A DNA stretch of 64,000 nucleotides from Candidatus Latescibacterota bacterium (GTDB lineage Bacteria > Latescibacterota > UBA2968 > UBA8231), in the NCBI GenBank assembly GCA_965206595.1, contig OZ242214.1, positions 4,768,001-4,832,000 of the forward strand. The letters run 5' to 3'. The translations under genes were made by a program, and so were the position numbers. Below, piece by piece: positions 6,920 through 61,167 of the stretch. Below the pieces are notes generated by a model. The model made no database searches, was not told the DNA's origin, and was given only the letters and a program-made list of their open reading frames with translations. The number at the start of each line of letters is the position of its first letter. Position 1 is the first letter of the stretch.

Positions 6920-7189
6920 ATGCATATGCACGCAGAACCCAATGAAAAAATGAGACTTCGGGAAGCCACGGCCATCATCGCTGCAGGTGGCGTCACAAAC
7001 AGCGTACTGGGAGTCGTAAAAATCGTCCTCGGCAGCGTTACCGGGTACCTTCCACTGACTGCTTCGGGGGTCCATTCGCTGTCGGACATTGTATCCGATG
7101 TCATCGCTTGGGTCGCCGTGCGGATAGGATCGCACGCTGAGAAACGGGGGTATATCCGGGTTTTTCAAAGGACAATTTATAGCATGTAA
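6920..7189 (+). pseudogene. N-terminal fragment of a cation diffusion facilitator (FieF-like) transporter
   Basis: AGGAGG RBS at 6905-6910; TM1-TM2 with CDF motif ...KIVLGSVTG...LTASGVHSLSDIVSD; homology ends after about 75 aa. Confidence 0.65.
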
Positions 7190-7298
7190 CAGAGAGAGAT
7201 ATCGAGTGATTCACACGGTACGGAATCGGGTCGGGATCTGCGCAGGGATATCGAGGTCTCCGACGCACAGGTAAATGAGGTCGGCAAGGGCGTCTTAA

Positions 7299-31074: not shown

Positions 31075-31175
31075 CTACGTCTCTCAACGCATTCAACCGA
31101 ATGGGCGCAAGGCCCCGCGGCATCATACCGGTTATGAAGACTTTCGAACAATCCTTTATTGCGACAATACCGGCC

Positions 31176-36762: not shown

Positions 36763-36805
36763 GCCCCGGTCCGCTCGCGGGCCGCCGAGAAAGGGAACCG
36801 TCGGG

Positions 36806-37699: not shown

Positions 37700-37739
37700 T
37701 TTCACCTCCTGTCGCTTGCGGGCGCGCGCTGGCGCCACG

Positions 37740-46500: not shown

Positions 46501-47570
46501 ACGATGCGGACAAGAAGGGCGTCGCATCATCGCTCGCGGAGATGCGTCGAATCATCGAGCAGAACCCTCGTAACCAAGAGGTGATTTTCCCCTACATTGG
46601 AGGGGAGGAGGTAAACACAAGCCCAACCCATTCTAACCACCGGTACGTCATCAACTTCCACACCTTTCCGCTGCGCCGGGAGGACTTGGGCGAACGGTGG
46701 CTGAACGCAGACCCGAATCAGTGTCGTGAATGGCTTCAGAGGGGAATCGTGCCCCTCGACTATCCCGGACGCGTAGCGTCAGACTGGCCGGAACTGCTGG
46801 CCGTTGTGGCGGCGAGAGTGAAACCAGATCGCGCCAAGCTCACACAAAACCCCATTGGACGAAAGCGCGCTGCCTTCTGGTGGCAGTACGGATCGCATGC
46901 CAATGAACTATACAGCGCCATTACCGGCATGAAGCGCGTGTTGGCTAACTCGCAAGTCAGCCAAAGAGTGCAGTTCGCTTTCTTGCCAGCAGAAATGGTG
47001 TACTCACATGCCTTGAATGTATATCCAATTCAAACTTACGCCGCTTTTTGCGCACTCCAGTCCCGCCCCCACGAGACCTGGGCACGGTTCTTCGGGTCGT
47101 CAATGAAGGATGACCTCCGCTACACCCCTACAGATTGTTTCGAGACATTCCCTTTCTCCGATGGCTGGGAAACCGACCCGGCCCTCGAAGTCGCAGCCCA
47201 AGCCTACTACGATTTCCGCGCCAGCCTTTTGGTCCGGAACAACCAAGGGCTGACCAAGACCTACAACCGCTTCCACGACCCTGACGAAGACCACCCCGAC
47301 ATCGCCAAGCTCCGCGACCTGCACGCCGCGATGGACCGGGTCGTACTCGATGCCTATGGTTGGAACGACATCCCCACCGACTGCGAGTTCCTCCTCGACT
47401 ACGAGATCGACGAGGAAGAGTGGGGCAAACGCAAGAAGCCCTACCGCTACCGCTGGCCCGACGACATCCGGGACGAAGTGCTGGCGCGGCTCCTCGAACT
47501 GAACGCCAAGCGCCCCAAACGAGAGACAGGTACCAAACCAGCGTACTGGGAAGACGACGATGACGAATGA
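43542..47570 (+). CDS. drmMI: DISARM class I DNA adenine methyltransferase DrmMI
   Basis: SGSHYTP, DPAMGSGAFL, GNPPF (N6 methyltransferase), TRD-like C-terminal region, RYTPTDCFETFPF; starts 2 bp after drmD. Confidence 0.88.
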   Translation: MAKLDPQVLRHLEWIGFVQPSGLVVSAPALVRASAILDRQDAEGQRRLRDCVEERAFPQDRDPEPWLPDFETFARTVLEWNFSPRGYAGTTENPIPEDLIVTAADGETLAPDFAVRERSPGEGESDWQLLVQVLEPGQAFDKEVKGSGTLEASPHSRMERLLRRTEVKAGLLFNGLAIRLISAPRGESSGWMDFRVAEMVQTSGRPICAAMRLLLKESRLLAMPAPQRLAALLVDSRKFQNEVSERLAEQVLHALYEMLRGFQAAHDASHGELLRRTLAENPDRVYHALLTMILRLVFLLYAEERDMLPKDGTFQRYYSLLGLYERLREDAALFPDTMDQRYGAWAQLLVLFRLIHDGAETGAMSLPRRHGVLFDPDRFPFLEGRPDMVARQIHERIEPPLVADGTIYRALEKLLVLDGERISYRALDVEQIGSVYETMMGFRLETASGRSLAIKAAKKQGAPTTVDLEALAAEPGTRRDKWFRDRADRKLGDKVKKAVKEAERLEDLHAALMPVIEVDATPDLVPQGAMVLQPSEERRRSGSHYTPRELTEPIVRTTLEPILGRLQGGNGNPPRPEQILDLKVCDPAMGSGAFLVEACRQLGDALVEAWRAHGEVPEIPPDEDEGIFARRLIAQRCLYGVDRNPMAVDLAKVSLWLATLAKDHALTFVDHALRDGDSLVGLSRKQIETFHWEREESPSFMLGFETMRVRDQVQEAAELRELIREAGEETADWELRDLWNRAQFALRKVRLFGDLATAAFFDGPKPKQREAKRREYGEAIFGGKAEQYLDWLDERRKVEPPLAPFHWEVEFPEVFDRENPGFDAIVGNPPFLGGTKISSTLGKNFLDWLLGLHEGSHGNADLVAHFFRRAFYLVRTDASFGLIATNTIAQGDTRSTGLRWICNHGGEIYHARRRVKWPGVAAVVVSVLHLWKGSSLSVLKKLDEKEMDMITAFLFHRGGHDDPSRLSANVGKSYTGSKVYGQGFTFDDADKKGVASSLAEMRRIIEQNPRNQEVIFPYIGGEEVNTSPTHSNHRYVINFHTFPLRREDLGERWLNADPNQCREWLQRGIVPLDYPGRVASDWPELLAVVAARVKPDRAKLTQNPIGRKRAAFWWQYGSHANELYSAITGMKRVLANSQVSQRVQFAFLPAEMVYSHALNVYPIQTYAAFCALQSRPHETWARFFGSSMKDDLRYTPTDCFETFPFSDGWETDPALEVAAQAYYDFRASLLVRNNQGLTKTYNRFHDPDEDHPDIAKLRDLHAAMDRVVLDAYGWNDIPTDCEFLLDYEIDEEEWGKRKKPYRYRWPDDIRDEVLARLLELNAKRPKRETGTKPAYWEDDDDE

Positions 47571-47692
47571 CAGCTTACACCTTTGGCCGTAAGTGCGTGG
47601 ACTCCTTGGGACGCATCGGAACAGGACATGGTACTGCCGTCAAAGCTGTTCGCCCGCAATCGAGGCACACAGCTATCGTTTGTAAGTCCCAG

Positions 47693-49849
47693 ATGACTGA
47701 AAAAATCCTTCAGGATCCTCCCGGTGTAGTGGATTACATCGACCAGATTCGTCAACTCGCAGATGACAATAGGTCCTCTCTCGGTTTTCTCCCCGCAAGT
47801 GCCTATACAGAAGCCGCAATGAAAGGACACCTCTGGATCGCCATCGACAGGAATACGAAGAAACTACGTGGTCATCTGTTCTTTGGCGGAAGCTATCCCC
47901 ACCTCAAGGTCTTCCAAGTCCATGTTCTCCCTGAGTATCGATTTGAAGGCGTAGGAGGAAGACTGGTCGGGGCGCTCAAGGAATACGGGGAAGACAACAG
48001 TTGGTTGACCATCCGTTCCAGAGTGGCTTCGGACTTGGAGGCGAACAAATTCTGGCAGGGGTCGGGGTTTCGAATTGTACGCCAGATCCCTGGAAAATCG
48101 AAAAGGACGATAAACGTTTATGAACTCGAACTGGACGTCCCATCCCTTTTCGGTAGGAGACAGTTTCCCGGGGCATCCAGTGGTGATGACGGAAGGCAAA
48201 TAGCCTACGCCAGGCCCCTGTTGCCCACGCCCTCCTATGTGATCGATCTGAACGTATTCTTCGATGCTGTGAGGCAACGGGATGCGGGAGAGTCAGCTTT
48301 CATATTCTCCTCGGCTCTAAACGGCGAAATACGTGTCAGGGTCACCCCTGAATTCAGGAGGGAACTGGAACGTCGCTCGCCAGATGTGTCCGACGACCCT
48401 GTTCTGGAATTTGCCAGAACCCTCCCGACCTTGCCAGAAATATCGCCAGGAATACTGGCGCGTCTGATTTAGGATCTGAAAGACAAACTTTCGGTGGCTG
48501 ATACAAGAACGGGTAAGTGGGCCGCAAATGAGCAATCGGATCTTGTTCACTTGGCATCGTGCATTCATCATAAAGCCTTCGGTTTTGTAACTCGCGACGC
48601 CAGAATTCTTCGACACAGCGGGACACTTCTGGAAAAGTACAGCCTGAGAGTTATATCACCCCTTGACCTCAGGGAACCGTTCGGGGAGGTGGACACATAC
48701 CTGCCTGAGTTCTCGGTAGCTGTTGGCCAAGAGGAAATCAGGGTTTCAAATCTTGATGAAGGCGATGCGGGGGCCGAGAGCTTCCTGAGAGAGATGGGGA
48801 TTGATGAAACCGCTATATCCTATTGTCTTGCCGCTGGAACAACGCAGTCTCCGAGGACGAGATTGGTTGTACGAACGGGGGAGGGAATAGTAGGAATAGG
48901 ATCATGGGAGGCAAGAACCAGTTTGTCCAGGAAGGCGGACGCATACCTATATGTCGACGAGGGGAACTGGAATGCTGACAGAGCGATCGATTACCTGTTG
49001 GAATCCATGACCAACCGGGGGCATCAGGGACAACTATTCTCGTTCGACCTGAAGACGGGGCCAGGGCAAAGACTGACCCGAGAAGTGGCAATCCGCAGGG
49101 GATTCCAGCCGATTCGAGGTGAAGAAGGAAATGCTTTACAGAGTCTCAGGAAGGTGTCCCATAGAGGAGTAATTACAAATGACAATTGGGAGTCCTTCAG
49201 AAATGACTTCAAGGAAGCTACTGGTTTTGAACTTGCTCACAGCATGCCAAAGCACGATGAGTTGTCCAACACCGGCATTGTCTTTAATAACAGATCTTGG
49301 CCTATAACGCTTTCCCTTTTCGACTTCGAAACCTTGGTGTCTCCCGGCTCGATCATTTGTCCCGGCCGAGGCGGCGTAATTGTGCCCATTAGGGAGAGAT
49401 TTGCCCATGAATTGGTACCCCCGACCGATAGTCAGACATCATTTCTTCCTGGTAAGGAAGCTGCATTGCGGTTGGAAAGGGCCTATTTCTGCCGGGTCGG
49501 GACCCAGAGAATGGTCGGACGGGGCACAGTGTTGGTCTTCTATGTCAGCGGCAGACAGAAGGCGGCCGTTGCCATTGCGAGGGCTACCTTCTGTGACAAG
49601 CTGACGAAGACCCAAGCGGTATTGAACCTCCGGAGGCAAGGAGTATTATCGGAGGAGGAAATAGGCCAGAGGGCAAATTCTAATGGTGAGCTCACGGCGA
49701 TGACCTTTGATAACCTGTTCCTTTTCCGCAGAAGTATTCCTTACCGGGACCTGAAGCAGATGGGATGTGTGGGAGGAGCGAATCTGGTTACAGCACAGCG
49801 ACTTTCCCATGAAGCACTTTCCGCAATCGTGGAAAGAGTATTGGATTGA
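47693..49849 (+). pseudogene. GNAT-PIN-GNAT-like-EVE/ASCH multidomain protein interrupted by a single in-frame TAG (48470-48472)
   Basis: ORFs 47567..48472 and 48494..49849 share a frame. GNAT (V.PEYRFEGVG, ANKFW...GF); PIN acidic residues on both sides of the stop (VIDLN, ELE | SDLVH, VTRD); PUA-like C-terminus (IVPI...F, RAYF, VFYVS). Confidence 0.75.
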
Positions 49850-49856
49850 AGAGTTC

Positions 49857-50318
49857 ATGGACCAAGCCATAATTTCTCTTAAGCCTCAATACGCGAACCT
49901 GATTCTGTCTGGGGAAAAGACGGTAGAACTCAGGAATAGAACTGTTAGATTGAAATCTGGAACCACGATTTGGATATACGCAACCCAACCTGTGGGCAGG
50001 ATAGTCGCTAATGCGAAAATAAAAACGGTTTCTCATGGAATCCCTGCCGAAATATGGGACCGCTACGGTGAAAAAATCTGCATCGAAAAAACACACTTCG
50101 ATTTCTACATAGGAAATAGTCGGCAGGTATCGGCCTTGGTCCTTTCCTCGGTAAAGAGAATCCAGGATCCTTGCACCCTGGAAAACATTCGTCAAGTCGT
50201 TGAGGATTTTCACCCCCCACAGTTTTATTCTCATCTACCTTCGGATGACCTGCTATTCGGAACTCTGAACAGTTTAGCGAACCATTCTGTTTCACGCCGG
50301 CGAAGGTCGTCCGGGTAA
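49857..50318 (+). CDS. ASCH domain protein
   Basis: IISLKPQYANLILSGEKTVELR, IYATQPVG, PPQFYS. Confidence 0.88.
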   Translation: MDQAIISLKPQYANLILSGEKTVELRNRTVRLKSGTTIWIYATQPVGRIVANAKIKTVSHGIPAEIWDRYGEKICIEKTHFDFYIGNSRQVSALVLSSVKRIQDPCTLENIRQVVEDFHPPQFYSHLPSDDLLFGTLNSLANHSVSRRRRSSG

Positions 50319-50502
50319 GGATCCTGGCAAACGCCCAACCCCTGAAAAAATTCGTTCGCTCCCTAACAGAACCGGATTTGGGAGGCTTTCGTAACGCGGA
50401 AAAAGCCCGTGATCGAAGAGGAACGGGAAAAGCAGCACCACCTGCTCCTGGAGGACTTTGGAGACCATTCTCTATGGCCGCCCATCCACTAAATCCTTTT
50501 GG

Positions 50503-50807
50503 CTCCTGCAAGATGCTCCACGCCTACGGAGGCCGCTGCCTCCTCATCCCCGCCACCAACCACGAGGGTCTCCTCGATACCGCCATCTGGCGGGGCTTCG
50601 AGGAAGTGCTTTCCTCAAGCCGCCTACGCTTCGCTGTGCCGGCTACTTGCGGTCAAGCTGCGCGGTGGACGACGGGGTTTCGAGGTGGTGGAGATCGCCG
50701 GGCGGGGCCGGTTCAAGGGCGCCAGTCATGCCGACGTCGGGCGCTTCGTGCGCCGGGCAGTGAAGGAGATGGTGCTGGAAGGTGAGGCTCCGGGTGCAGC
50801 ACCTTGA
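50503..50807 (+). pseudogene. Frameshifted C-terminal relic of a classical AAA ATPase
   Basis: Across frames: LLQ/ML..YGGRCLLIPATNHEGLLDTAIWRGFEEVL (degraded second region of homology) then RLLAVKLRG...GASHADV.RFVRRAVKEMVL. Confidence 0.6.
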
Positions 50808-50874
50808 GTCGGCGCGACAGTCGGACAACTTCCCCTGGCGCGTAACGTACTTGCGGAACAGGGGTGGGTGACAA

Positions 50875-51255
50875 ATGGCTGAGAACGACTGGTACGAAGA
50901 ACTTCCGGAGGACTGCCCGCCAAGAGACGCGGGGGCGCCCGTTTCTGAACCGCACTTCCGGGTCGTTCGGACGATTCCCCCGACTGACTGCGATTTCGTT
51001 TCCCAGAGAGCACTCTACCCGGAACGACCGTTCTCGGTACCTGAGTGCCAGGCACGGGCGGTATCGCTTTTCCCCGTTCGCAAGAGCGCCAGTGGGGTCT
51101 TGAAATTGCCACGGTTCAAGGGTGGAGCGATCGTTTCCCTTACTCTTCCTCCAACCGCTGGCGTTACCAAGAAGACCGGTGGCAAGCCGGGCCACGTGTC
51201 CTGGTGGCGCCGCGCCAACTTCGACCCGGTCCCATTGGCCTTGCCAGTTAGCTGA
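50875..51255 (+). CDS. Small hypothetical protein, candidate ADP-ribosyltransferase/RES-like fold
   Basis: 126 aa; LP..CPP, HFR, DF.S, C.A.AVSLF, GHVSWW; 15 bp before the next gene. Confidence 0.55.
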   Translation: MAENDWYEELPEDCPPRDAGAPVSEPHFRVVRTIPPTDCDFVSQRALYPERPFSVPECQARAVSLFPVRKSASGVLKLPRFKGGAIVSLTLPPTAGVTKKTGGKPGHVSWWRRANFDPVPLALPVS

Positions 51256-51270
51256 AGCGGGGGCTCAACA

Positions 51271-52440
51271 ATGCGCAGATCCGTCCGGCTTGTGCGAACC
51301 CTGATCTACTACGATGGACCTCAGGTGATCGTGGCCAGTGATGAGGTGGGACAACTCTATCTCGGATTGCTGGTCCAGGCCCCGGACGGCGGGGATGCAT
51401 ACCTGCTGACGCCCATCTCAGCAAGTCGGTTGTATCAACTGGAGACCGGTATTCTGGACGTCCGCGGTGCGCTTACGATCCCTGAAGTTGACGAGTACTA
51501 TACTGCGGCGCTCACTGGTGACACCGAAGTGGAGGACCGCTTGCCGCTGTCTCCAGTGGGTCACCCCCCTGAGAAGTGGCTCCCCGAGCCCGACCTTCGA
51601 GTGTCGGACTTCGTGGAGCCGGACGCTGTGACGCAGGAGGTAACGTCCCGTGGCAAGGCCGTCTTGCACCTTCGGATGAGCCCTCCCGAATCCCACATCG
51701 CGGCACAGATAGGTGTTACCAACCTGGCCATATGTCTGTCACTTTTCCAGAATCTGGTTGGCCAGGCATATCGGAAGGTTCTTCGCGATGTCGGCCCCGA
51801 TACACGAAAAATGATTGCCGATGAGTCTAACTGGATGATGGACGTCTCTGGCTTTTCCCACGGGTCCTTCACCATCCATTTGCAGTCGAGGGCGGAGCCT
51901 GACTTGCTCGGATACGTAGGTCTGTCCCGGGCCCTGGATCGGGTCGATGCCCTGACCGAAGGCATCGATGCACCGGAGGCAGGACTTTCGACTATGCGTC
52001 AGAACAGGGGTCACCTCGTAGCTGCCTATCGGCGATTGCTGAAGTTCCTGGTTGACTCGGAATCGGCCCTTGGATACCAGTGGTCGGCACCGGACCGGAC
52101 GTTCTCATCCACCAGGGCGATTTCTCGAGATTCCGCAGAGAGACTCTACAGCTTGATCGTGGCGCAGAAGGACTTGACGGTCGAGGAGGTCAGTCTCAGG
52201 GGTGTCTTCATACACGTCAACGTGGAATCGGGCCTCTGGACCCTGCGGGACGACGAAGGGATCTCGCATCACGGCCGTTCCGCCAGTGACTTGCAAGGCG
52301 CGCTGAGTGGTTTGATCGTGGACACTCAACGATACGAGGTGGACTGCATTGAACGAGTTGAAGAGACTGGAGTTGGCGAGATCCGGACAAGTCTTGAGTT
52401 GAAGGGGATCGAGCCACTCGAAGGGATAACTACTGCATGA
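51271..52440 (+). CDS. DUF6575-like N-terminal domain protein
   Basis: 389 aa; L.YYDGPQV....D..G..YLG....YL..PIS..RL..L..G..DVR, LPEPD, GSF; family recognised from memory. Confidence 0.55.
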   Translation: MRRSVRLVRTLIYYDGPQVIVASDEVGQLYLGLLVQAPDGGDAYLLTPISASRLYQLETGILDVRGALTIPEVDEYYTAALTGDTEVEDRLPLSPVGHPPEKWLPEPDLRVSDFVEPDAVTQEVTSRGKAVLHLRMSPPESHIAAQIGVTNLAICLSLFQNLVGQAYRKVLRDVGPDTRKMIADESNWMMDVSGFSHGSFTIHLQSRAEPDLLGYVGLSRALDRVDALTEGIDAPEAGLSTMRQNRGHLVAAYRRLLKFLVDSESALGYQWSAPDRTFSSTRAISRDSAERLYSLIVAQKDLTVEEVSLRGVFIHVNVESGLWTLRDDEGISHHGRSASDLQGALSGLIVDTQRYEVDCIERVEETGVGEIRTSLELKGIEPLEGITTA

Positions 52441-52558
52441 GTGCCGGGGAGAACAGCGGTTGTGAGTCGCCCCAGAGGAGCCTCTGGGCCAGCCTGGCGA
52501 GCTCGACTGGTCCGCGATCGCTACGGCACTGGTTACTTCTAACGCGGAGGAAGATGGG

Positions 52559-53131
52559 ATGGTAGAGTACAAGACAGGCAACATCCTCGACGAGGATGTG
52601 GAAGCCCTCGTAAACACGGTCAACTGCGTCGGCTTCATGGGCAGGGGAATCGCCCTGCAGTTCAAGAAGTCCTGGCCTGATAATTTCAAGGCATATGAAG
52701 CTGCCTGTCGCAAGAAGGAAGTTCAGCCTGGACGCATGTTCGTGTTCGAAACGGGACAGTTGGTTTCGCCTCGCTACATCATCAACTTCCCGACCAAGCG
52801 GCACTGGCGGGGCAAGTCCAGGATCGAAGACATCGACTCGGGTCTGAATGCGCTGATTGCCGAAGTCCGGTCTCGGAAAATCTGCTCCATCGCGATTCCT
52901 CCCTTGGGCGCTGGGCTCGGCGGACTTGCCTGGGCAGATGTACGGGTGCGGATCGAAAGGGCAATGCAGGACCTTCCGGACGTACGGACGATAGTGTTCA
53001 AACCCCATGATGCTCCTGATCCGGTGGAACCAGCAACTGCGAGAAGGGTGCCCGGGAGGCAGCAAATACCATCGGACAAGCCATCCATTCCCGCAGGCAA
53101 TGCCAATGGAATCAAAGCTCAAACATCTTGA
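52559..53131 (+). CDS. DarG-type macrodomain (ADP-ribose glycohydrolase) lacking the C-terminal domain
   Basis: ALVNTVNCVG.MGRGIALQFK, IINFPTKRHWR..S, SIAIPPLGAGLGGL.W; homology ends at about aa 165; GGAGG RBS. Confidence 0.85.
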   Translation: MVEYKTGNILDEDVEALVNTVNCVGFMGRGIALQFKKSWPDNFKAYEAACRKKEVQPGRMFVFETGQLVSPRYIINFPTKRHWRGKSRIEDIDSGLNALIAEVRSRKICSIAIPPLGAGLGGLAWADVRVRIERAMQDLPDVRTIVFKPHDAPDPVEPATARRVPGRQQIPSDKPSIPAGNANGIKAQTS

Positions 53132-53534
53132 ATTGATCCAAGGAGTGGTCAACCGCCTTGCGACCGACTCGTTCCGCGTGAAGGGGTGGATCGTGGTTCT
53201 GGTCACTGCCTTGTTCGTCCTGTTGGCGATAGAGGATCGCCTCCATGCTGCCTACATCGCATTGGCACCTGTCCTCGTCTTCTGGGGCCTCGACGGCTAC
53301 TACCTGTGGCAGGAGCGCCTGTTCCGGGCGCTTTACGACCGTGTCCGGGTGGTGGACGAAAGTGAAGTCGACTTTTCAATGGCCACCGCTGCGTTCCGAA
53401 CGGGTTGGAAGCGCTCTTGGCTTGGCTCAACCTTGTCGATAACGCTGGTTCCGTTCTACGGAGCTCTCATCATCGCGATTGTTCTGGTCGTATTCTACCT
53501 TCCAGGAGAACAAGCTATTAATAACGGCTCGTAG
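53106..53534 (+). CDS. Small multi-TM protein of the type found next to ThsB-like TIR genes
   Basis: KLKHLELIQGVVNRLA..SF..KGW, FWGLDGYYL.QERLFRALYD.VR; three hydrophobic segments. Confidence 0.7.
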   Translation: MESKLKHLELIQGVVNRLATDSFRVKGWIVVLVTALFVLLAIEDRLHAAYIALAPVLVFWGLDGYYLWQERLFRALYDRVRVVDESEVDFSMATAAFRTGWKRSWLGSTLSITLVPFYGALIIAIVLVVFYLPGEQAINNGS

Positions 53535-53637
53535 AGGCCGGGACGGCGTCGCCGATTCCGTACAAAGGCGGATAGGTTTCTTTACCTACCCTTCCGGATA
53601 GCACCCCTTTCCGTCTTGCTTTCGAGAGGATACAACG

Positions 53638-55215
53638 ATGCGTTTTTTCAGCACTGCTGGTCCGGTCAAGCCCGAAAAGCACCACTGCATCCCGCCGTTG
53701 GACCGGCTGAACCTCGCCGAGGTGCTCGCGTTGGTGCGGGACGAGAAGTACTTCGTTTTGCATGCGCCGCGTCAGACGGGCAAGACGTCGGTCCTCCTGG
53801 CGCTGCGCGACCTGCTCAACGCCGGAGTGGCCTATCGCTGCGTGTACGTCAATGTCGAGGCCGGGCAAACCGGGCGCGAAGACGTGGAACAGGTCATGCG
53901 CACCATTCTGGGAACGTTGGCGTTGCGAGCGAGCGTGACCCTGGACGACGAATTTCTGCTCGCGGTCTGGTCGGACATCTTAGCCGAGTTCGGTCCGCAC
54001 GCCGCTCTGCAAGTGGCGTTGACGCGCTGGTCCAAGGCCGACCCGAAGCCCTTGGTGCTGCTCATCGACGAAATTGATTCCTTGATCGGCGATTCCTTGC
54101 TGTCGGTGCTGCGCCAGTTGCGGTCGGGATACGATCTGCGGCCAGAGGGTTTTCCGCAGAGCGTGGTGCTGTGCGGGGTGCGCGACGTGCGCGACTATCG
54201 CATTCAATCCACCGCGGAGAACGCCATCATCGCCGGTGGCAGCGCGTTCAATATAAAAGCGGCATCCCTGCGGTTAGGGGACTTTTCCCGGGAGGAGGTG
54301 CGGGCGCTGCTCGGTCAGCACACCGAGGAGACGGGGCAGGTGTTTACCCCCGAGGCGCTGGAGACGGTCTGGACGCAGACACAAGGGCAGCCGTGGCTGG
54401 TCAACGCGCTGGGCGACGAAGCCTGTTTCCAGGGCGAATGTGCGCAGGCGTGGCATCGTCCGGTCACCGCCGAAGCCATCCGCGCCGCCCAGGAGCAGCT
54501 CATCCTGCGGCGCGAGACGCATCTGGACCAGTTGGCCGACAAACTCAAGGAGGAGCGGGTTCGCCGGGTTGTCGAGCCGCTGTTGAGCGGCGGAGAGGAA
54601 CGCCACTTCGCCGACCGCGACATCGAGTATGTGCGGGATCTCGGGCTGGTCGCACAAGACCTGCCGTATCGCATCGCCAACCCGATCTATGCCGAGGTGG
54701 TGCCGCGCGAACTGACGTGGGTGGTGCAGGGGGAATTCGAGCAGGACGCCGCCTGGTATGTGGATGCCGGGGGGGGGCTGGACGTGGTCAAGCTGCTGTC
54801 GGCGTTCCAGGAGTTCTTCCGCGAGCACTCCGAACACTGGGTCGAGCGATTCGAGTACAGGGAAGCCGGCCCCCAGTTGCTGCTGCAGGCGTTTTTGCAG
54901 CGGATCGTCAACAGCGGCGGTCGCATCGAGCGCGAGTACGGATTGGGGCGGATGCGGACGGACTTGCTGATCGTGTGGCCGCAAGGAGAGCGGACGCGCC
55001 GGTTCGTCGTCGAGTGCAAGGTGCTGCACAGGAGCTTGGAGCAGACGATTGCCGAGGGATTGGAACAGACGTTCGAATACATGGATCGCTGCGGAGGGGA
55101 GGCGGGCCACCTGGTGATTTTCGACCGGCGTGAAGGTCGGCGTTGGGCGGACAAACTGTTTCACTGCCGCCGGGTGTCGGACAGCGGGGTCGAGATCGAT
55201 GTGTGGGGGATGTGA
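53638..55215 (+). CDS. AAA-like ATPase with C-terminal PD-(D/E)XK nuclease-like domain
   Basis: Walker A APRQTGKT, Walker B LLIDEID, REYGLGRMRTDLLI...VVECK. Confidence 0.8.
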   Translation: MRFFSTAGPVKPEKHHCIPPLDRLNLAEVLALVRDEKYFVLHAPRQTGKTSVLLALRDLLNAGVAYRCVYVNVEAGQTGREDVEQVMRTILGTLALRASVTLDDEFLLAVWSDILAEFGPHAALQVALTRWSKADPKPLVLLIDEIDSLIGDSLLSVLRQLRSGYDLRPEGFPQSVVLCGVRDVRDYRIQSTAENAIIAGGSAFNIKAASLRLGDFSREEVRALLGQHTEETGQVFTPEALETVWTQTQGQPWLVNALGDEACFQGECAQAWHRPVTAEAIRAAQEQLILRRETHLDQLADKLKEERVRRVVEPLLSGGEERHFADRDIEYVRDLGLVAQDLPYRIANPIYAEVVPRELTWVVQGEFEQDAAWYVDAGGGLDVVKLLSAFQEFFREHSEHWVERFEYREAGPQLLLQAFLQRIVNSGGRIEREYGLGRMRTDLLIVWPQGERTRRFVVECKVLHRSLEQTIAEGLEQTFEYMDRCGGEAGHLVIFDRREGRRWADKLFHCRRVSDSGVEIDVWGM

Positions 55216-55373
55216 GCGGTGGGGTTCTGGTTGACCCTGAAGTCGGATTTCACCGATGCCCATCGCCGGCACTGGTCAGACGCTGAACTGCTCTTCCAGT
55301 GATGCATCAAAGACAGCCAAGAAGTAAGTCCCCGTGACCGACAAACCCCAGACCCGCAAACCCGGTAGCTGCA

Positions 55374-55763
55374 ATGGTCGTCCGCAACAGCTGGGTGACG
55401 CAGGGAAAGGAGGCAGCGGGTTTTGTTGACGCTGCTGATTTCGAGAAGATCAAGCGACAGGGGGATGCGGCCATTGAGCGATGGATCGACAACCAACTCC
55501 TTGGCACCTCCGTAACCGTCGTATTGGTAGGAGCTCGCACCTGTTCAAGCAGGTGGGTAAAGTACGAAATAGAGCAGAGCAAGAAGCGGAACAACGGTTT
55601 ACTTGGAATCGACATCGGCAAAATCAAGGATCTGGATGGAAACACGACTAAACGGTGCGGCAAAATACCGGCTGGTTACCCGTTCTATCTCTGGAATAAA
55701 CATGATGGCTACAACAACATGGACGATTGGATAGAGGAAGCGGCCAGGGACGCAGGGCGCTGA
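55374..55763 (+). pseudogene. ThsB/MTH538-like TIR domain (DUF1863) lacking its first beta strand
   Basis: VRNSWV, WIDNQL.GTSVTVVLVG..T..S.WV.YEI..S..R.NGLLGI, WIEEAA; the usual MARR-VFFSF N-terminus is absent. Confidence 0.75.
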
Positions 55764-55820
55764 AGCGTATTGGGATTGGACGACGGACGAACTATACACC
55801 ATTAGCGGATCAGATAAAAA

Positions 55821-57053
55821 ATGACGGAAACGTCCACGACATCTGAGTTCGATCCAAGGATCATCACCCGGGTCGCTCTGCGAAACTACAAGAGCATCGC
55901 CGCCTGCGACGTCGAGCTAACGCCGCTGACGATCCTGGTGGGCGCAAACGGCGCCGGCAAGAGCAACTTCCTCGACGCCCTCCGCTTTACCGCCCAGGCC
56001 CTGCGCTTCTCCCTGGATCACGCCCTGCACGAGCGCGGCGGCATCAACGAAGTCCGGCGGAGGTCCCGAGGTCATCCGAATCACTTCGGCGTCCGTCTCA
56101 ATTTCCGGCTTCCGGAGGCAACTGGCTGGTACGTGTTCGAAGTAGGCGCCCGGCCGAAAGGGCGCTACGTCGTGCGGAAAGAAGAGTGCGTGGTCAAGTC
56201 CGCGGACAGCGACCGGACGGGACTCTTCCGGGTAGAGAACGGGCGTCCGATCACCACTTCATTCGCCCATCCGCCCGGGGCGGGAGACGACCGTCTCTAC
56301 CTCATGCAGGTAGCCGGTTACCCGGCGTTCCGTCCTGTCTACGACGCGCTCGCCGGGATGGGTTTCTACAACATCCATCCCGAACAAGTCCGGGATCTGC
56401 AGTCCCCGGATCCCGGCGACCTCCTCAAGCCAGACGGAAGCAATATCGCCAGCGTGCTCGCGAACCTGAAGTCCGAGGCGCCGGAGAGTGCGGCGCGCGT
56501 CGGTAAGTATCTCTCCAAGGTAGTCCCGGGAACGGTGGACGTGGAGTCGAAGACGGTGGGACCCAAGCTGACGTTGGAGTTTCGCCAGGAAGTCCGCGGC
56601 GACCCTCATCCCTGGCGTTTCCTCGCCAACAACGTTTCGGACGGAACGTTGCGCGTTCTCGGAGTGCTCATTGCCCTCTACCAGGGCGCCGGCATGGAGT
56701 CGGGAAAAGCGAAGCTGATCGGCATCGAAGAGCCGGAGGGCTCCCTCCATCCAGCCGCAGCGGGTGTGCTGACCGACGTGCTGCGCGAGGGGAGCGAACG
56801 CGCGCAAGTGATCGTCGCCAGCCACAGCGCGGACCTTCTGGATCGGGAGACAATTCCGTTGGAATCCATCCTGGCCGTGGTCTCGGAGGATGGAGAGACG
56901 CGGCTAGCCCCGCTGGACGAGACGAGTCGGGCCATGCTTCGAGACCATCTTTTCACTGCAGGTGAGCTGCTACGCATGGATCAGTTGATACCCGATCCCG
57001 CGCTCTCGAGGCCGAACCAGCTAAGTATGTTCGGCGGCGAAACTGACACCTGA
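55821..57053 (+). CDS. ABC-type (AAA_21-like) ATPase
   Basis: NYKSI, GANGAGKSN, signature VSDGT, Walker B IEEPE..LHP, ASHS. Confidence 0.88.
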   Translation: MTETSTTSEFDPRIITRVALRNYKSIAACDVELTPLTILVGANGAGKSNFLDALRFTAQALRFSLDHALHERGGINEVRRRSRGHPNHFGVRLNFRLPEATGWYVFEVGARPKGRYVVRKEECVVKSADSDRTGLFRVENGRPITTSFAHPPGAGDDRLYLMQVAGYPAFRPVYDALAGMGFYNIHPEQVRDLQSPDPGDLLKPDGSNIASVLANLKSEAPESAARVGKYLSKVVPGTVDVESKTVGPKLTLEFRQEVRGDPHPWRFLANNVSDGTLRVLGVLIALYQGAGMESGKAKLIGIEEPEGSLHPAAAGVLTDVLREGSERAQVIVASHSADLLDRETIPLESILAVVSEDGETRLAPLDETSRAMLRDHLFTAGELLRMDQLIPDPALSRPNQLSMFGGETDT

Positions 57054-57054
57054 C

Positions 57055-57627
57055 ATGGTGAAAATCGCCGCTATTGTCGAAGGGGACGGCGAAGTGGAGG
57101 CCGTCCCCGTGTTGATTCGGCGGATCAGCACGGAAGTTTCCCCACTTGCCCCGCCGAATGTGTTGAGACCGATCCGCGTGCGTCGCCAGAGAATTCTCAA
57201 GGAGGGCGAGCTGGAACGATACATGAGCCTGGCAGCGGCCCGCGTCGGTGACGGGGGTTGCATATTGGTTTTGCTGGACGCCGAGGGAGAATGCCCGGCT
57301 GAACTCGGTCCAGATATCCTGCAACGCGCCCGCGATGCCAGACCGGATCGCCAAATCGAAACAGTGTTGGCGAAGTACGAGTATGAGACCTGGTTTGTGG
57401 CGGCGTCCGAGTCGATCGCAGGCTCGGGGATTTCACAGGATGTATCTCCCCCGCCAAATCCGGAATCCATCCAGGGCGCCAAGGAGTGGCTACGCCGAAT
57501 GCTTCCGGCCTACAGTCCGACAGCTGATCAAGCTGCCTTGACCGCTCGCTTTGACATGGAGCTGGCGCGCCAACGCTCCCCCTCATTTGACAAGATGTGG
57601 CGGGCGGTGGCCAAGCTGTTGCAATGA
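57055..57627 (+). CDS. DUF4276 family (TOPRIM-like) protein
   Basis: IVEGDGE..AVP.LIRR, VLLDAE..CP, EYETWF.A, PE....AK.WL, Y....DQ, SPSF; 1 bp after the ATPase. Confidence 0.8.
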   Translation: MVKIAAIVEGDGEVEAVPVLIRRISTEVSPLAPPNVLRPIRVRRQRILKEGELERYMSLAAARVGDGGCILVLLDAEGECPAELGPDILQRARDARPDRQIETVLAKYEYETWFVAASESIAGSGISQDVSPPPNPESIQGAKEWLRRMLPAYSPTADQAALTARFDMELARQRSPSFDKMWRAVAKLLQ

Positions 57628-57759
57628 CCTTTCGCATTGGGGCATTTGCCGGCGGCGCAAGGCTATGCGACCGGAGAAACGGCGGTGAAACCGACCTACC
57701 TGGAATTCTAGTCCGGTTCCATCGACTCATCGAAGCCAACCCCGATACAGGAAGTCCTC

Positions 57760-60700
57760 GTGACTGACAAACCCCCGAACCGCCAACCCGGTAGCTCTGC
57801 CGAAGTACGCAAACGCCTGATTGAGGCCCTGAATCTCGATCTGGTTGGGCCCTGGGTCGGCCACTCCCTGGCCGACGAGCGCCTTCCAGGATGGCGGCGG
57901 CCATCGAACTGGTACCTGGCCGGTTTTTTGATCCCGTCTGGGTCCGCAGCTGATACGAGCGCCGACGCGGACGAAGATGACGACATGGACGGGGAAGTCC
58001 CGGAGTCCGCTGGCCTTGCCGAAGAGTCGACCGAGGAAAAGAAAGCTGCCAAGAAGGGTTATTTCCCTTCCTCCATGGGCTTGAGCTTCCTCGTCCCGGA
58101 AGACGCGGACTCGGTGGAGGTGGCCGTCTCCTGGGGCGACTACGCCCCGGAGGAAGTCGAAGATGACGGCGGCAAGGCCCTGTCCGTCTGGCAGCGGACC
58201 CCCCGCCTGGAGGTGCTCACCCTGAAGCTCACCGAATCCGACGATCCTGTTGTCTGCGATGTCCCTGAGTCCGGCGGTCTCCTGCTCCATGTTGTCGAGC
58301 GCAAGGTCGTCGCACAGGACCTCGAGAAACACATCCCTCCGGGAACGCGGTCGGTTTCGGTTTTCCTGGTCAACAACCGGACCCCTGTGGAGGCCGATGC
58401 AGACCGCGCCTATGTCTTTCAGCCTGAGCTCAAAGTGAGCGGTAGACGCCCGTTTGTCCCGCGGCCGGACCTGCGGGGAACGCGCGCCGATCGCTGGGAT
58501 GATCGAGTGGCCGACCTCCACTACGCGGACACCCCCTCGTACGCTACCGGCCACGGCGTATCGGCAGACTGGGAGATCATCGACGGCGAGTGCCGTCTCC
58601 TGCGGACCGCGTGGATCCCCCGTGCCGAGGTGGAAAAGACGGAGACCGCCGAAGTGCCGGGGGTCGAGTTGACGATGGAGGCACTTGGCTCGCTGCCCGA
58701 CGGGGCGGCAGCCGAGGACGCTCTACGGCCGCTCGTCGACCAGTACCGCACCTGGGGCGAAGCGAGGCAGGCGGAACTCGAGGATTTGGAGGGAACTCGC
58801 CGTGAGACAGCAGCGGAGCTGCTGCGGTTGGCCGACCTCGCGGCTGACCGGATCGAGCGCGGGATCGCGGTATTGGCGGCCGACGAAGACGCGCTCGATG
58901 CATTCCGGGTGGCTAACCGGGCGGTGGCGCGGGCGCTGCGCCAGCGTCTGGGCATCGAAGAGCCGGGCTGGCGGGCGTTTCAGCTCGCCTTCATCCTGCT
59001 GAATCTCCCCGGGCTGATTGACCCGGCCGACAAGGATCGCGAGACGGTGGACCTGCTGTTCTTCCCCACCGGCGGCGGCAAGACCGAAGCCTATCTCGGC
59101 CTTGCGGCGTTTGCCATGGTGCTGAGAAGACTGCGCCATCCGGATGCGCAGGGATGTGCGGCCGCCGGGGTGAGCGTGATCATGCGCTATACCCTGCGAC
59201 TTCTGACCCTCGATCAGCTCGCGCGCGCCTCGGGTCTGGTCTGTGCACTGGAGCTGGAACGTGCCGAGGCGGGAGGCCGCTACGGCGACTGGCCCTTCGA
59301 GATCGGGCTCTGGGTAGGCAAGGCGGCAACACCCAACCTTCTCGGAAAAAAAGGGGACGGCCGCTCGGATTCCGCGCGCACCAAGGTGAGGCAGTACAAA
59401 GCAGACCCAAGAGGAAAGCCGTCGCCGGTCCCGTTGGAGAGCTGCCCCTGGTGCGGAGATCCGTTCGGACCGGACTCGTTCGCGCTGCTGCCCAACGATG
59501 ACCAGCCGCGCGAGCTGCGGATCGTGTGCATGAACTTCGAGTGCGACTTCAGCGGTGACCGTGCATTGCCGATCCTGGCCGTCGACGAGCCGATCTACCG
59601 GCGGCTGCCCGCCTTTCTGATCGCCACGGTGGACAAGTTCGCATCGCTGCCCTGGATGGGACCCTCCGGCGCACTTCTGGGCGGAGCCGACCGATATGAC
59701 GGGAGCGGCTTCTACGGCGCCACCGACACGGGAAGAGGAACCCGGCTGCCTGCCCCGCTGCTGCCGCCCGACCTGGTGATCCAGGACGAGCTGCACCTGA
59801 TCTCCGGGCCATTGGGAACGATGGCCGGGCTGTACGAAGCGGCGATCGAAGCGCTGTGTGTGCGCGGGACCGGAGGGAATGCCGTCCGGCCCAAGATCGT
59901 CGCCTCCACGGCCACTGTAAGGCAGGCGCAGGACCAGATCCAGGCGCTCTTCGGCCGCTCGCTGACACAGGTTTTCCCCGCCCCCGGCCCGGATCGGCGC
60001 GACTCCTTCTTCGCGCGCACGGCGACCTCCAATGTGCCCGGCCGGGTATACGTTGGGATCGCGGCCCAGGGCCGGAACCCCAAGGTGATCATGCGCAGGG
60101 CCTGGCTGGCGCTGATGGGAACCGCCCAGAAGGCCTACGTGGAAGCGGGAGGGCGCCCCAACAAGGAGAACCCCGCCGACCCGTACATGACGGTGCTGGG
60201 CTACTTCAACAGCCTTAAGGAGCTGGGCGGCGCCCGGCGCATTCTCGAAGAGGAAATCCAGAACACCATCAAGGGCTACGGAATCCGCAAGCGAATCGGC
60301 GAGACGACCGGGCTGTTCCGGGACCGGAGGACCTTCTCCGAAGTGTTGGAGCTGACGTCGCGCGTCTCCACGGACAAGGTGGCCGAGGCCCGCCGCCGGC
60401 TGGAGTGCGGCTTCCACGAGAATGACCGCGTCGACTGCGCAATCGCCACCAACATGATCTCCGTGGGACTGGACATCCAACGGCTCGGCCTGATGGTCGT
60501 GCTGGGGCAGCCCCTGCGCCACGACGAGTACATCCAGGCCACGAGCCGCATCGGTCGCGACGACGAACGGCCGGGCCTGGTGGTGAGTCTGCTCAACATC
60601 CACAAGCCCCGGGACCGCTCTCACTACGAGCGGTTCCGTCACTACCACGAGACCTTCTACCGCTCCGTCGAGGTCGGCAGCGTCACGCCGTTTTCCGCGC

Positions 60701-61167
60701 GCGCCCTGGACCGGGGGTTCGCCGGGGCCCTGGTAACGCTCGCTCGACACGGGCGGCCAGAGCTGACACCGGCATTGGAGGTGAAGCGGATCGGCGAGGT
60801 GCGCGCGGAGTTGGAACGCTTGCTGCTCGATGCCTTCCTCGAACGGGTGCGGCAGCAGCCGATCACCGACGAGGAAGAGCGCGAGCAGTATTTGCGCAGC
60901 GTGCAGAACCGCGTCGTCGACCTGCTCGACTCCTGGACCAAGGTGATCGACGACTACCGGTCGGCCGGAGTCGAGGTCCAGTATCAGCGCTACGAAATCC
61001 CGGGGCTCCGGCATCCCCGGCCGCTGCTTCGCGAAATCCTGGACAAGGAATTCGAAACCGAGCATCACGCGAAGTTCCGGGCCAACCGTTCCATGAGAGA
61101 TGTCGAACCCAGCGTAAACCTGTTCCTGGAAGACCTTGGTGGATTCCGGAGAAAAGCGGACAGATGA
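57760..61167 (+). CDS. drmA: DISARM SF2 helicase DrmA
   Basis: FPTGGGKTEAY, MRYTLRLLT.DQ, CPWC zinc motif, QDELH, ASTAT, QATSRIGR. Confidence 0.92.
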   Translation: MTDKPPNRQPGSSAEVRKRLIEALNLDLVGPWVGHSLADERLPGWRRPSNWYLAGFLIPSGSAADTSADADEDDDMDGEVPESAGLAEESTEEKKAAKKGYFPSSMGLSFLVPEDADSVEVAVSWGDYAPEEVEDDGGKALSVWQRTPRLEVLTLKLTESDDPVVCDVPESGGLLLHVVERKVVAQDLEKHIPPGTRSVSVFLVNNRTPVEADADRAYVFQPELKVSGRRPFVPRPDLRGTRADRWDDRVADLHYADTPSYATGHGVSADWEIIDGECRLLRTAWIPRAEVEKTETAEVPGVELTMEALGSLPDGAAAEDALRPLVDQYRTWGEARQAELEDLEGTRRETAAELLRLADLAADRIERGIAVLAADEDALDAFRVANRAVARALRQRLGIEEPGWRAFQLAFILLNLPGLIDPADKDRETVDLLFFPTGGGKTEAYLGLAAFAMVLRRLRHPDAQGCAAAGVSVIMRYTLRLLTLDQLARASGLVCALELERAEAGGRYGDWPFEIGLWVGKAATPNLLGKKGDGRSDSARTKVRQYKADPRGKPSPVPLESCPWCGDPFGPDSFALLPNDDQPRELRIVCMNFECDFSGDRALPILAVDEPIYRRLPAFLIATVDKFASLPWMGPSGALLGGADRYDGSGFYGATDTGRGTRLPAPLLPPDLVIQDELHLISGPLGTMAGLYEAAIEALCVRGTGGNAVRPKIVASTATVRQAQDQIQALFGRSLTQVFPAPGPDRRDSFFARTATSNVPGRVYVGIAAQGRNPKVIMRRAWLALMGTAQKAYVEAGGRPNKENPADPYMTVLGYFNSLKELGGARRILEEEIQNTIKGYGIRKRIGETTGLFRDRRTFSEVLELTSRVSTDKVAEARRRLECGFHENDRVDCAIATNMISVGLDIQRLGLMVVLGQPLRHDEYIQATSRIGRDDERPGLVVSLLNIHKPRDRSHYERFRHYHETFYRSVEVGSVTPFSARALDRGFAGALVTLARHGRPELTPALEVKRIGEVRAELERLLLDAFLERVRQQPITDEEEREQYLRSVQNRVVDLLDSWTKVIDDYRSAGVEVQYQRYEIPGLRHPRPLLREILDKEFETEHHAKFRANRSMRDVEPSVNLFLEDLGGFRRKADR

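Follow-up and report, generated by a model that had tools for sequence, protein, structure and literature searches.

Anchor-gene scars in the cargo slot of a class 1 DISARM operon suggest imprecise recombination with sister copies of the operon

The window analysed here, a stretch of 64,000 nucleotides from a Candidatus Latescibacterota bacterium, carries a DISARM operon whose five genes are all open frames and match the PADLOC models for DrmD, DrmMI, DrmA, DrmB, and DrmC:

40246..43539, + strand: drmD, SNF2 helicase, open frame (PADLOC DrmD, 1017 bits; NCBIfam NF038317 above cut-off)
43542..47570, + strand: drmMI, N6-adenine methyltransferase, open frame, upstream anchor of the slot (PADLOC DrmMI, 1285 bits; GSGAFL and NPPF motifs)
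57760..61167, + strand: drmA, helicase, open frame, downstream anchor of the slot (NCBIfam NF038325, 1126 bits against a cut-off of 950)
61164..62954, + strand: drmB (DUF1998/MZB), open frame (NF038324 above cut-off)
62951..63733, + strand: drmC, phospholipase D, open frame (NF038319 above cut-off; HxKxxxxD motif)

A profile search of the window proteins thus places DrmD, DrmA, DrmB, and DrmC above their NCBIfam cut-offs, and the drmA-drmB-drmC core with drmD and drmMI ahead of it bears out the class 1 assignment of the first-pass annotation. Class 1 DISARM, as described in the text of bioRxiv 10.1101/2021.12.28.474362, comprises drmD, drmMI, drmA, drmB, and drmC; the same five genes are found here in the same order and on the same strand, the differences being 10.2 kb of cargo inserted between drmMI and drmA and the lack of a drmMII among the genes scanned from 40.2 to 63.7 kb. 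The DISARM of this genome is probably working.

The gap between drmMI and drmA measures 10,189 bp, in agreement with the initial estimate of about 10 kb, and contains the following genes and remnants:

47567..49849, + strand: GNAT-PIN-(EVE-like) gene, PDC-M11A-like, broken (weak Pfam matches to GNAT and PIN_3; PDC-M11A E 7e-14)
49857..50318, + strand: ASCH gene, PDC-M11B, intact (Pfam ASCH E 3e-8; PDC-M11B E 3e-27)
50318..50783, + strand: ietA AAA ATPase remnant, internally deleted and frameshifted (tblastn with the L039 protein, residues 13-67 and 229-320; PADLOC identifies that protein as IetA, E 6e-95)
50826..50876, + strand: last 17 codons of darG, overlapping the next start (tblastn with G020 DarG residues 330-346, E 3e-6)
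50875..51255, + strand: ADP-ribosyltransferase-fold protein, 126 aa, PD-T4-10A-like, intact (family model matches; predicted structure)
51271..52440, + strand: DUF6575 protein, PD-T4-10B-like or PDC-M63B-like, intact (Pfam DUF6575 E 5e-7)
52499..52543, + strand: probable (weak) darT 3' remnant (8-residue match to G020 DarT, E 0.006)
52559..53020, + strand: 5' half of darG, macrodomain only (PADLOC DarG model positions 1-155 of 329)
53106..53534, + strand: membrane protein (TM), PDC-M50A, intact, parted from its TIR partner (PDC-M50A E 2e-45)
53524..53536, + strand: first four codons of the former TIR gene after TM, start codon now ACG (TM/TIR overlap in G001 and G002)
53638..55215, + strand: AAA ATPase, putative nuclease part at the C terminus, passenger gene present in several copies (Pfam AAA_22 and AAA_35)
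55246..55296, + strand: HEPN-like PDC-M28A gene, 17 codons remaining (tblastn query: the L053 protein, a PDC-M28A; 88% identity, E 5e-12)
55294..55370, + strand: drmA copy, diverged, covering the upstream region plus the first 12 codons from the GTG at 55334 (similarity to 57717-57796)
55371..55763, + strand: ThsB-like TIR gene, PDC-M50B, without codons 1-17 (ThsB and PDC-M50B models matched from position 19-20)
55821..57053, + strand: ABC ATPase, HEC-01A, intact (E 3e-156)
57055..57627, + strand: DUF4276 (TOPRIM-like) protein, HEC-01B, intact (HEC-01B E 1e-70; Pfam DUF4276)

About 5.8 kb of the interval consists of intact genes and about 3.8 kb of scars or broken genes. Several features first read from the interval were recovered: every cargo gene identified sits on the DISARM strand, GC content is mixed (46% in the ASCH gene to 64% in the AAA gene, against 64-67% in the drm genes), and neither integrase nor transposase was detected, the cargo proteins scanned having no Pfam match to these families and four transposase queries against the interval, a weak test, finding nothing. 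Misassembly, which had been allowed for, is unlikely. Contigs of run X1, the best-matching run and possibly the source sample, show zero differences across key junctions (47501-50812, including the TAG discussed below, 50787-52798, 52787-54176, and 55334-55976, the last reaching 37 letters beyond the joint between the drmA copy and TIR), the whole stretch being spanned by no single record. The gene order is also the same in the nearest relative (G001), which was assembled separately.

The first-pass annotation had counted at least five unrelated modules, and the cargo does map to known or candidate systems (PDC-M11-like, PD-T4-10-like, DarTG, PDC-M50, and HEC-01), but several of these are broken, and pieces of ietA, darG, darT, a HEPN gene, and drmA, missing from the first list, lie between the genes. 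In the proposed GNAT-PIN-EVE and ASCH module, GNAT and PIN (weak Pfam matches) and ASCH hold up, but the larger gene, whose true start is likely near 47693, is interrupted by an in-frame TAG at 48470-48472, and the EVE label is putative, the C-terminal part matching PDC-M11A. This stop is strain-specific: GAG replaces it in G001, where the gene is intact, and in contigs of runs from three other studies, while G020 has an intact homologue (744 aa, 70% identity). A complete PDC-M11 was rejected, since only the B gene is intact and the broken A gene is matched over its C-terminal part only. The text of Bell et al. 2020 (PMC7641849) describes (PIN)-GNAT-EVE + ASCH operons that share GNAT, PIN, and the ASCH partner with this locus, as well as an adjoining methylase-based defence system; unlike them, the window gene has a GNAT at its N terminus, is longer, at about 740 aa, and is stop-broken.

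The macrodomain read as a further module is present, but only as the 5' half of darG (74% identical to residues 1-165 of intact G020 DarG), without DarT; its frame continues to 53131 through unrelated sequence. Nucleotide similarity to the G020 darT-darG junction begins at 52526, and remnants resembling the darG tail at 50826 occur ahead of the same ADP-ribosyltransferase-fold gene in G002 and G020. An intact DarTG, as found in G020, was rejected on account of this half gene and the at most short darT scar. The grouping of TM and TIR as one module did not survive either. An intact TIR gene lies directly 3' of the PDC-M50A gene in G002 and L066; here the AAA gene and the drmA copy intervene, and the TIR gene (97.7% identical to residues 18-147 of the intact G001 protein) lacks its first 17 codons, so that, with 1.8 kb between the two, a complete PDC-M50 was rejected. 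The four-codon TIR remnant behind TM comes from direct reading of the sequence and is too short for statistics. The AAA ATPase, whose putative C-terminal nuclease part may be PD-(D/E)XK, has no PADLOC match at E 0.1 and occurs three times in this genome (G000), in unrelated places, the other copies being 79% and 67% identical. Downstream, the ABC ATPase followed by an adjacent TOPRIM-like gene constitutes HEC-01, which gave no protection in the assays reported in the text of Payne et al. 2024 (bioRxiv 10.1101/2024.01.29.577857). With three named modules broken, HEC-01 non-protective when assayed, and the AAA gene multi-copy and unmatched in PADLOC, the idea of five working, unrelated second-line systems in this genome is not supported, and gene-level counts overstate the working cargo.

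The only other complete two-gene module resembles PD-T4-10, an E. coli system that acts abortively against T-even phages, and in which B is toxic and A neutralises it, as shown for the E. coli system only; the text of Vassallo et al. 2022 (PMC9519451) assigns neither protein a function. In both cases, a small gene precedes a larger DUF6575 gene, and family members match the models: PD-T4-10_A is matched by 88 of 128 members of the small-protein family (best 2e-13), PD-T4-10_B by 19 of 91 DUF6575 family members (best 1e-5), and PDC-M63B by 36 of these 91. The pair is nevertheless distant from the system in that text, as the two window proteins themselves match neither PD-T4-10 PADLOC model, there is no overlap between the genes, and B is similar to PDC-M63B as well. 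The structure model of the 126-aa protein (pLDDT 94) has KptA/Tpt1 as its best fold match (Z 7.3, rmsd 2.7, 88 aligned), followed mostly by ADP-ribosyltransferase (ART)-fold entries, and R29, S64, and H107 are invariant in its family. Residues 304-385 of the DUF6575 protein match SSB/PriB (Z 9.9, rmsd 2.1, 77 aligned), giving a predicted C-terminal OB fold. Both folds come from models made in the present analysis and not from PMC9519451, and no ART or OB assignment for PD-T4-10 proteins was found in those parts of the literature searched. These predictions may offer a starting point for working out how PD-T4-10-like systems act.

Beyond this genome, the drmMI-drmA gap exceeds 300 bp in 25 of 28 measurable DISARM loci (range 85 bp to 9.3 kb), against 10/77 for the other three junctions (4/15, 4/36, and 2/26), counts that are not independent because the surveyed loci are related. 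An intact-looking PADLOC system match (representatives scanned, others assigned via clustering) was obtained in 20 of the 25 loci with a larger gap, plus a fragment only in one further locus, compared with 2 of 25 other window genes serving as a control. The cargo types include Gabija, IetAS, Dsr2, Hachiman, DarTG, and a retron. In related intervals, the DISARM strand, which the ORF picker slightly favoured, holds 70 of the 79 higher-scoring ORFs. One related interval (L050) contains an IS transposase, so transposition contributes at times. Modules are shared in different orders between G000, G002, G020, G165, and G126; the cargo of G001 equals that of the window except for 366 extra bp and an intact GNAT-PIN. 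Turnover is, therefore, visible between more distant genus genomes (G002), not between these two. Extra co-oriented genes that lie between system genes, vary, and are mostly defence-related are embedded cargo in the sense of Payne et al. 2024, and the drmMI-drmA junction is such a slot, variable and defence-rich, as the first-pass annotation had proposed on both counts. Its suggestion that the slot be mined for new systems is not new, as genes embedded in DISARM were mined by Payne et al. 2024, and such mining mostly returns systems already in PADLOC.

How the cargo arrives may be read from the scars. The drmA copy in the window is 77.5% identical to 57717-57796 over 80 bp (E 2e-8). Its G001 counterpart extends over 360 bp at 89% identity to live drmA, has no stop or frameshift over 106 codons, and continues in frame into the final 15 codons of a second TM gene, with an intact TIR following. 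At 26 sites where copy and live drmA differ, the allele of three outgroup genomes is found in the copy 12 times and in the live gene 13 times, a near-equal agreement that fits two functional alleles rather than a decayed duplicate. The third-position excess between copy and live gene (20/34) is significant against pure neutral decay only (p 0.002), not against a mixed model (p 0.09), and variants are shuffled among the drmA copies of G000 and G001. The diverged copy behaves as a sister allele, not as a decayed duplicate. Copies of drmA 5' ends also occur in G019 (103 bp, 87%) and L057 (107 bp, 83%), and other anchors have left scars too (a drmMI-tail copy of 37 bp, 92%, in L036; a drmB 3' copy in L032). 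Among 38 loci screened, drmA 5' repeats were seen in window/G001 (one event) and L057, with G019 in addition; this frequency is not above background, as a direct repeat within the 10 kb ahead was also found for 21 of 300 stretches drawn at random from this genome. A comparable fusion exists in type I R-M loci of one other genus, where an hsdR 5' copy (71-82% identical, about 250 bp) joined to an hsdS-like 3' end precedes the same PD-T4-10-like pair and live hsdR in four of five loci examined; the four fusions probably represent one event.

These observations suggest that the cargo builds up when sister copies of the operon recombine imprecisely with it. The favoured explanation, held with somewhat better than even confidence, is homology-anchored capture from sister DISARM alleles into the slot, with an illegitimate second joint and subsequent deletion. 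No recombinase of its own was found for the slot, and sister alleles among related bacteria would be the cargo source. Incoming DNA would pair via conserved drm homology on one side and join illegitimately inside a gene on the other; alternatively, a tandem integration could later be trimmed by deletion, which would give the same product as homology-facilitated illegitimate recombination. Each event would add a module beside the anchor, truncate the resident module at the joint, and leave a diverged anchor-gene end. The last would have joined [cargo A ... AAA - drmA codons 1-106] to [TM 3' end - TIR - HEC-01 - drmA], the state seen in G001. Comparison shows that this genome subsequently lost 366 bp, which took away the TIR start and most of the drmA copy, and that a nonsense change broke GNAT-PIN. 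The PD-T4-10-like pair and HEC-01 are the only complete two-gene modules left and, going by their homologues, most likely serve as back-up defences, with expression from the operon. The anatomy and the allele comparison fit the expected homologous anchor, joint inside unrelated sequence, and remnant from a different allele; microhomology was not clear at the two joints inspected, and no donor allele with TM-TIR-HEC-01-drmA alone was found. A comEC gene in the window passes its cut-off and counts in favour of this explanation.

An unlikely but still credible alternative, named as a hypothesis in the text of Payne et al., is a genomic sink: the junction would merely tolerate insertions, brought by IS, by selfish AAA-nuclease genes, or by local tandem duplication without any shared route, and these would decay, with most cargo of no current benefit and the drmA copy a local duplication. 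The roughly 3.8 kb of broken sequence, the three scattered AAA genes, the commonness of direct repeats (21/300), and the IS in L050 agree with it. However, a local duplication would not bring the end of a second TM gene, to which the copy is fused, nor does the sink sit well with outgroup alleles as frequent in the copy as in live drmA, or with the defence-specific cargo (20/25 against 2/25). Less probable still is plain allele replacement, in which a double homologous crossover in drmMI and drmA swaps whole blocks, and scars that arose once in an ancestor travel with them. It is the commoner route according to the text of Kirchberger et al., the whole block is shared between G000 and G001 at 94-100% per 500 bp, and along the drm genes the identity to G002 and G020 is uneven, as recombination would give; yet it cannot produce a block in which the drmA start and the TM end each occur twice, or reorder modules among G000, G002, and G020, and it probably acts alongside homology-anchored capture. 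A dedicated integron-like system, inserting cassettes at the drmA start with a recombinase in trans, is very improbable: cargo-flanking drmA 5' repeats in three lineages (window/G001, G019, and L057) and co-oriented cargo would suit it, but the repeats differ in length (about 100, 107, and 360 bp), joints fall inside genes at differing positions, other anchor ends are duplicated too, and an integron-like array was rejected, as no shared inter-cassette repeat family was found, no repeats between cargo genes bar the drmA copy, and no integrase among the cargo proteins.

Homology-anchored capture may extend further. A tentative broader proposal, rated somewhat below an even chance, is that DISARM and type I R-M operons both gain their embedded defence cargo by this one integrase-free route, which leaves datable fused gene ends, and that the slot holds a distant PD-T4-10 relative with a presumed antitoxin of ADP-ribosyltransferase fold (invariant R-S-H) and a presumed toxin ending in an SSB-like OB fold. 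If so, one genome would suffice to work out the order of gains and losses, and in the PD-T4-10 relative the toxin may be neutralised enzymatically, with single-stranded nucleic acid as a possible trigger.

Compared with known systems, the hotspot is an ordinary case of a published phenomenon. The guilt-by-embedding approach of Payne, Hughes, Fineran, and Jackson (2024, bioRxiv 10.1101/2024.01.29.577857) searched BREX, DISARM, and type I R-M loci for embedded genes, gave rise to the HEC and PDC models, and, according to its text, found 96.7% of embedded genes co-oriented. The present locus likewise has co-oriented defence genes inside a DISARM operon, matched by HEC and PDC models; the main text makes no mention of the drmMI-drmA junction by name (Fig. 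S8 and Tables S3-8 may), leaves remnants untreated, and leaves open how genes become embedded without a recombinase, a question to which the scars offer a testable answer. A similar mechanism, sequential displacement through homology-facilitated illegitimate recombination, has been proposed, by inference, in the text on Vibrio cholerae T6SS effector-immunity arrays (PMC5361080), where modules are also added beside a conserved anchor, older ones are shifted or truncated, and no integrase is involved. Unlike those arrays, as that text presents them, the anchors here are defence-operon core genes on both sides, entire systems unrelated to each other make up the cargo, and the anchor gene leaves its own end behind as a scar.

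Five open frames of the window operon match DrmD, DrmMI, DrmA, DrmB and DrmC and keep their catalytic motifs, which makes it a class 1 DISARM operon in the sense outlined in bioRxiv 10.1101/2021.12.28.474362. It belongs to a single-contig genome of 7.05 Mb (G000), and its closest drmA relatives are found in Candidatus Latescibacterota. The slot between the end of drmMI (47570) and the start of drmA (57760) spans 10,189 bp, and the first-pass annotation had described this stretch (47571..57759) as a variable defence-cassette hotspot of at least five unrelated modules. That inventory was roughly right, but three of the modules are incomplete and the scars had been overlooked. Intact genes account for about 5.8 kb, against about 3.8 kb of broken genes and scars, and GC content per cargo gene ranges from 46 to 64%. 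In this genome the slot is part arsenal, part graveyard.

Cargo of the drmMI-drmA slot, from left to right
GNAT-PIN gene with a PDC-M11A-like C-terminal part, stopped by a TAG at 48470
ASCH gene (PDC-M11B), intact
ietA remnant, deleted and frameshifted
darG end, 17 codons
126-aa gene, then DUF6575 gene
probable darT scar, then half of darG
membrane gene (PDC-M50A), then four codons of a TIR start
AAA gene, then 17 codons of a PDC-M28A gene
copy of the drmA start, 80 bp
TIR gene without codons 1-17, then an intact HEC-01A/B pair

Misassembly was checked using contigs of the best-matching sequencing run (X1), which show zero differences over 47501-50812, 50787-52798, 52787-54176, 55334-55976, 55958-56901 and 56876-57764; this run is possibly the source sample, and no one record covers the whole stretch. 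Both the TAG and the joint between the drmA copy and TIR lie within these difference-free contigs. The nearest relative, G001, of the same genus, has an identical gene order at about 97.5% identity. The hotspot is real. The stop in the GNAT-PIN gene is strain-specific, since position 48470 is G in G001 and in runs from three other studies. Read-through or recoding of the TAG was ruled out, the codon being GAG in G001 and those runs and CAG in G020, a member of the same family. A promoter and terminator scan of the slot (6 and 8 sites, versus 3.7 and 10.7 expected) was uninformative.

Other features of the window
3154-8948: clustered IS701, IS5 and IS1380 transposase genes or pieces
21778-24177 (+): ComEC/Rec2 competence gene, exceeding the NCBIfam cut-off
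29578-32336 (-): SoFic-like Fic gene beside a 499-aa gene lacking an NCBIfam match, in a lower-GC patch; reads as a second small defence-like insertion
36136-40076 (-): putative Ku, LigD and TPR protein genes, back to back with drmD
45800-47200: part of drmMI where identity to G001 drops to 68-75%, versus about 95% elsewhere, as expected if target-recognition regions were swapped between near relatives

The variability claimed for the slot holds across relatives. Among 41 loci retrieved with DrmA, the drmMI-drmA gap was measurable in 28, the other 13 being dropped for a contig end, a gap above 10 kb or decayed genes. It measures 85-109 bp in 3 of the 28 and 1.0-9.3 kb in the remaining 25, while the other three junctions exceed 300 bp in only 4/15, 4/36 and 2/26 loci; the loci are mutually related, and these counts are descriptive. 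The cargo is also rich in defence genes, a PADLOC-type gene being present in 20 of the 25 cargo-bearing loci, with one more holding a fragment only. The tally rests on a PADLOC scan of 54 representatives, made up of 53 cargo ORFs out of 123 and one window gene, and of a few more; the remaining cargo was assigned by clustering. At the same threshold, 2 of 25 control genes from window 1-40 kb match PADLOC, namely SoFic and the ComEC metallo-hydrolase domain. The systems found include Gabija, IetAS, Dsr2, Hachiman, DarTG, a type XI retron RT-protease, GmrSD, PD-Lambda-4A, HEC-01, PDC-S28, S64, M28, M11 and M50, and toxin-antitoxin pairs. The slot of G002 (same genus) carries a 339-aa gene, TM, TIR, Gabija, the 126-aa/DUF6575 pair and a pentapeptide gene; that of G020 carries GNAT-PIN, ASCH, DarT, DarG, TM, a TIR scar, a darG scar, the same pair and a putative HNH-like gene (CxxC and HVPPK motifs). 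Compared with the window, they show the same modules recurring in varied orders. Spirochaete loci (L043, L047-L050, L056) share another recurrent cargo module, a 122-aa gene just before drmA that has no Pfam or PADLOC match at the thresholds used and often has a 128-aa neighbour; it is duplicated in L047 and L050 at 83-88% identity.

The AAA gene has no PADLOC match and is best read as a passenger. Two paralogues exist elsewhere in G000, one amid defence-like genes and the other within an array of tandem genes for secreted-looking proteins; similarity to them ends at the coding sequence, with no conserved ends around the gene. Its summed contig depth in X1 is 20-40x that of single-copy cargo, presumably owing to homologues in other organisms. 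The third AAA copy of G000 lies in a defence-like cluster (G000:C1:4049655-4059935), together with apparent TIR-like, PIN-like with ATPase and HTH-helicase genes.

The window 126-aa and DUF6575 proteins have no direct PADLOC match, and a new system was suspected. The suspicion was dropped after family-level scans: 88 of 128 relatives of the former match PD-T4-10_A, and among 91 relatives of the latter, 19 match PD-T4-10_B and 36 PDC-M63B. Vassallo et al. (PMC9519451) show that PD-T4-10 acts abortively as a toxin-antitoxin pair whose toxic member is B, and list DUF6575 among the domains of new systems, the system holding it going unnamed in the text. The small gene, whose family comprises 873 clusters at 50% identity, was found in 12 places across 168 genomes of the phylum, immediately upstream of DUF6575 in 11, and every occurrence with examined surroundings lies in a DISARM or type I R-M locus; a plasmid search gave no DUF6575 match. 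A Pfam scan matched none of the 128 family members. R29, S64 and H107 of the small protein are invariant. The predicted structure (pLDDT 94) resembles ADP-ribosyltransferase folds, with KptA/Tpt1 as the best match (Z 7.3), an intermediate score that gains weight from the many ART entries ranked below. For the DUF6575 protein, the predicted C-terminal end is an OB fold resembling SSB (Z 9.9), residues 1-300 being barely covered by the comparison; Foldseek returned no hit at E <0.001 for either model. On these predicted folds, enzymatic neutralisation of B by A might be put forward, purely as a hypothesis.

The scars bear on how the cargo was gained. In G001 the drmA copy measures 360 bp and shares 89% identity with the live gene. 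After its codon 106 it continues in frame into the final 15 codons of a second TM gene, and a complete TIR follows; G000 has lost 366 bp of this region. At 26 sites where the G001 copy and live gene differ, the outgroups G002, G020 and G165 side with the copy at 12 and with the live gene at 13. Since most derived changes would be expected in the copy if it were a decayed local duplicate, a second functional allele is the better reading. Over its 37 coding bases the G000 copy is identical to the live gene of G001, and the live gene of G000 has several variants in common with the G001 copy, a sharing that points to recombination among copies. A codon-position test of copy versus live gene was indecisive (p 0.002 or 0.09 by model).

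In the simplest history, two DISARM alleles with different cargo would have been joined, through homology within and past drmA on the right-hand side and by an illegitimate joint on the left, to which end joining by the Ku/LigD-like genes could add. Scar anatomy and the allele test together make such capture from sister operons moderately probable. Comparable scars involve the drmA 5' end in G019 and L057, the drmMI tail in L036 and the drmB 3' end in L032.

Features of other loci
L027:13185-14831 (G019): collapsed DISARM with drmD, drmA and drmC pieces; antitoxin-PIN pair between two 100-bp drmA starts
L032:15170-15615: small antitoxin/toxin-like pair flanked by drmB and a second copy of its 31-codon end, ahead of drmC
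L057:5071-10000: drmA 5' copy, then CBASS-type cyclase, RmrA-like gene and live drmA
L035:9617-13321 and L037:9617-13336 (also G141): DUF6575 N-terminal domain (about 115 aa) fused in frame to the start of an intact DrmA; this may be a deletion joint that is tolerated, or a variant of DrmA that has gained a domain
L097:7394-9500 (G093) and L076-L078: type I R-M loci in which an hsdR 5' copy runs into an hsdS-like 3' end, followed by the PD-T4-10-like pair

The type I R-M locus of G093 offers a parallel, its putative genes running hsdS, cargo A, the hsdR/hsdS-like fusion, the 126-aa/DUF6575 pair and live hsdR. Four of the five loci inspected for this genus carry the hsdR repeat, which probably stems from one event. 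In G093 the upstream cargo resembles Vsr, a C5 methylase, a GHKL ATPase and a response regulator.

Integration in tandem with a later deletion would give the same product as capture from sister operons. Against capture, an IS sits in the L050 interval, and drmA repeats amount to 2 events in 38 loci, plus G019; they are no commoner than nearby direct repeats at random stretches of G000 (21/300), and their frequency was discarded as support. Microhomology was not evident at the inspected joints. An integron-like cassette array was rejected, repeat searches of the slot finding none between cassettes.

The hotspot is ordinary in kind and was previously mined in print: Payne et al. 2024 (bioRxiv 10.1101/2024.01.29.577857) mined BREX, DISARM and type I R-M for embedded genes, 17,432 in all, of which 96.7% are co-oriented. 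The HEC and PDC models matched by the window cargo stem from that work, where HEC-01 is reported to give no protection in the assays described. The present analysis adds the scar anatomy with its allele test, and the fold assignments for the PD-T4-10-like pair. Literature searches at the level of titles and listings found no publication that describes such a recombination route for embedded defence cargo. The same type of route as that envisaged for the DISARM slot, homology-facilitated illegitimate recombination, has been proposed for V. cholerae T6SS arrays (PMC5361080).
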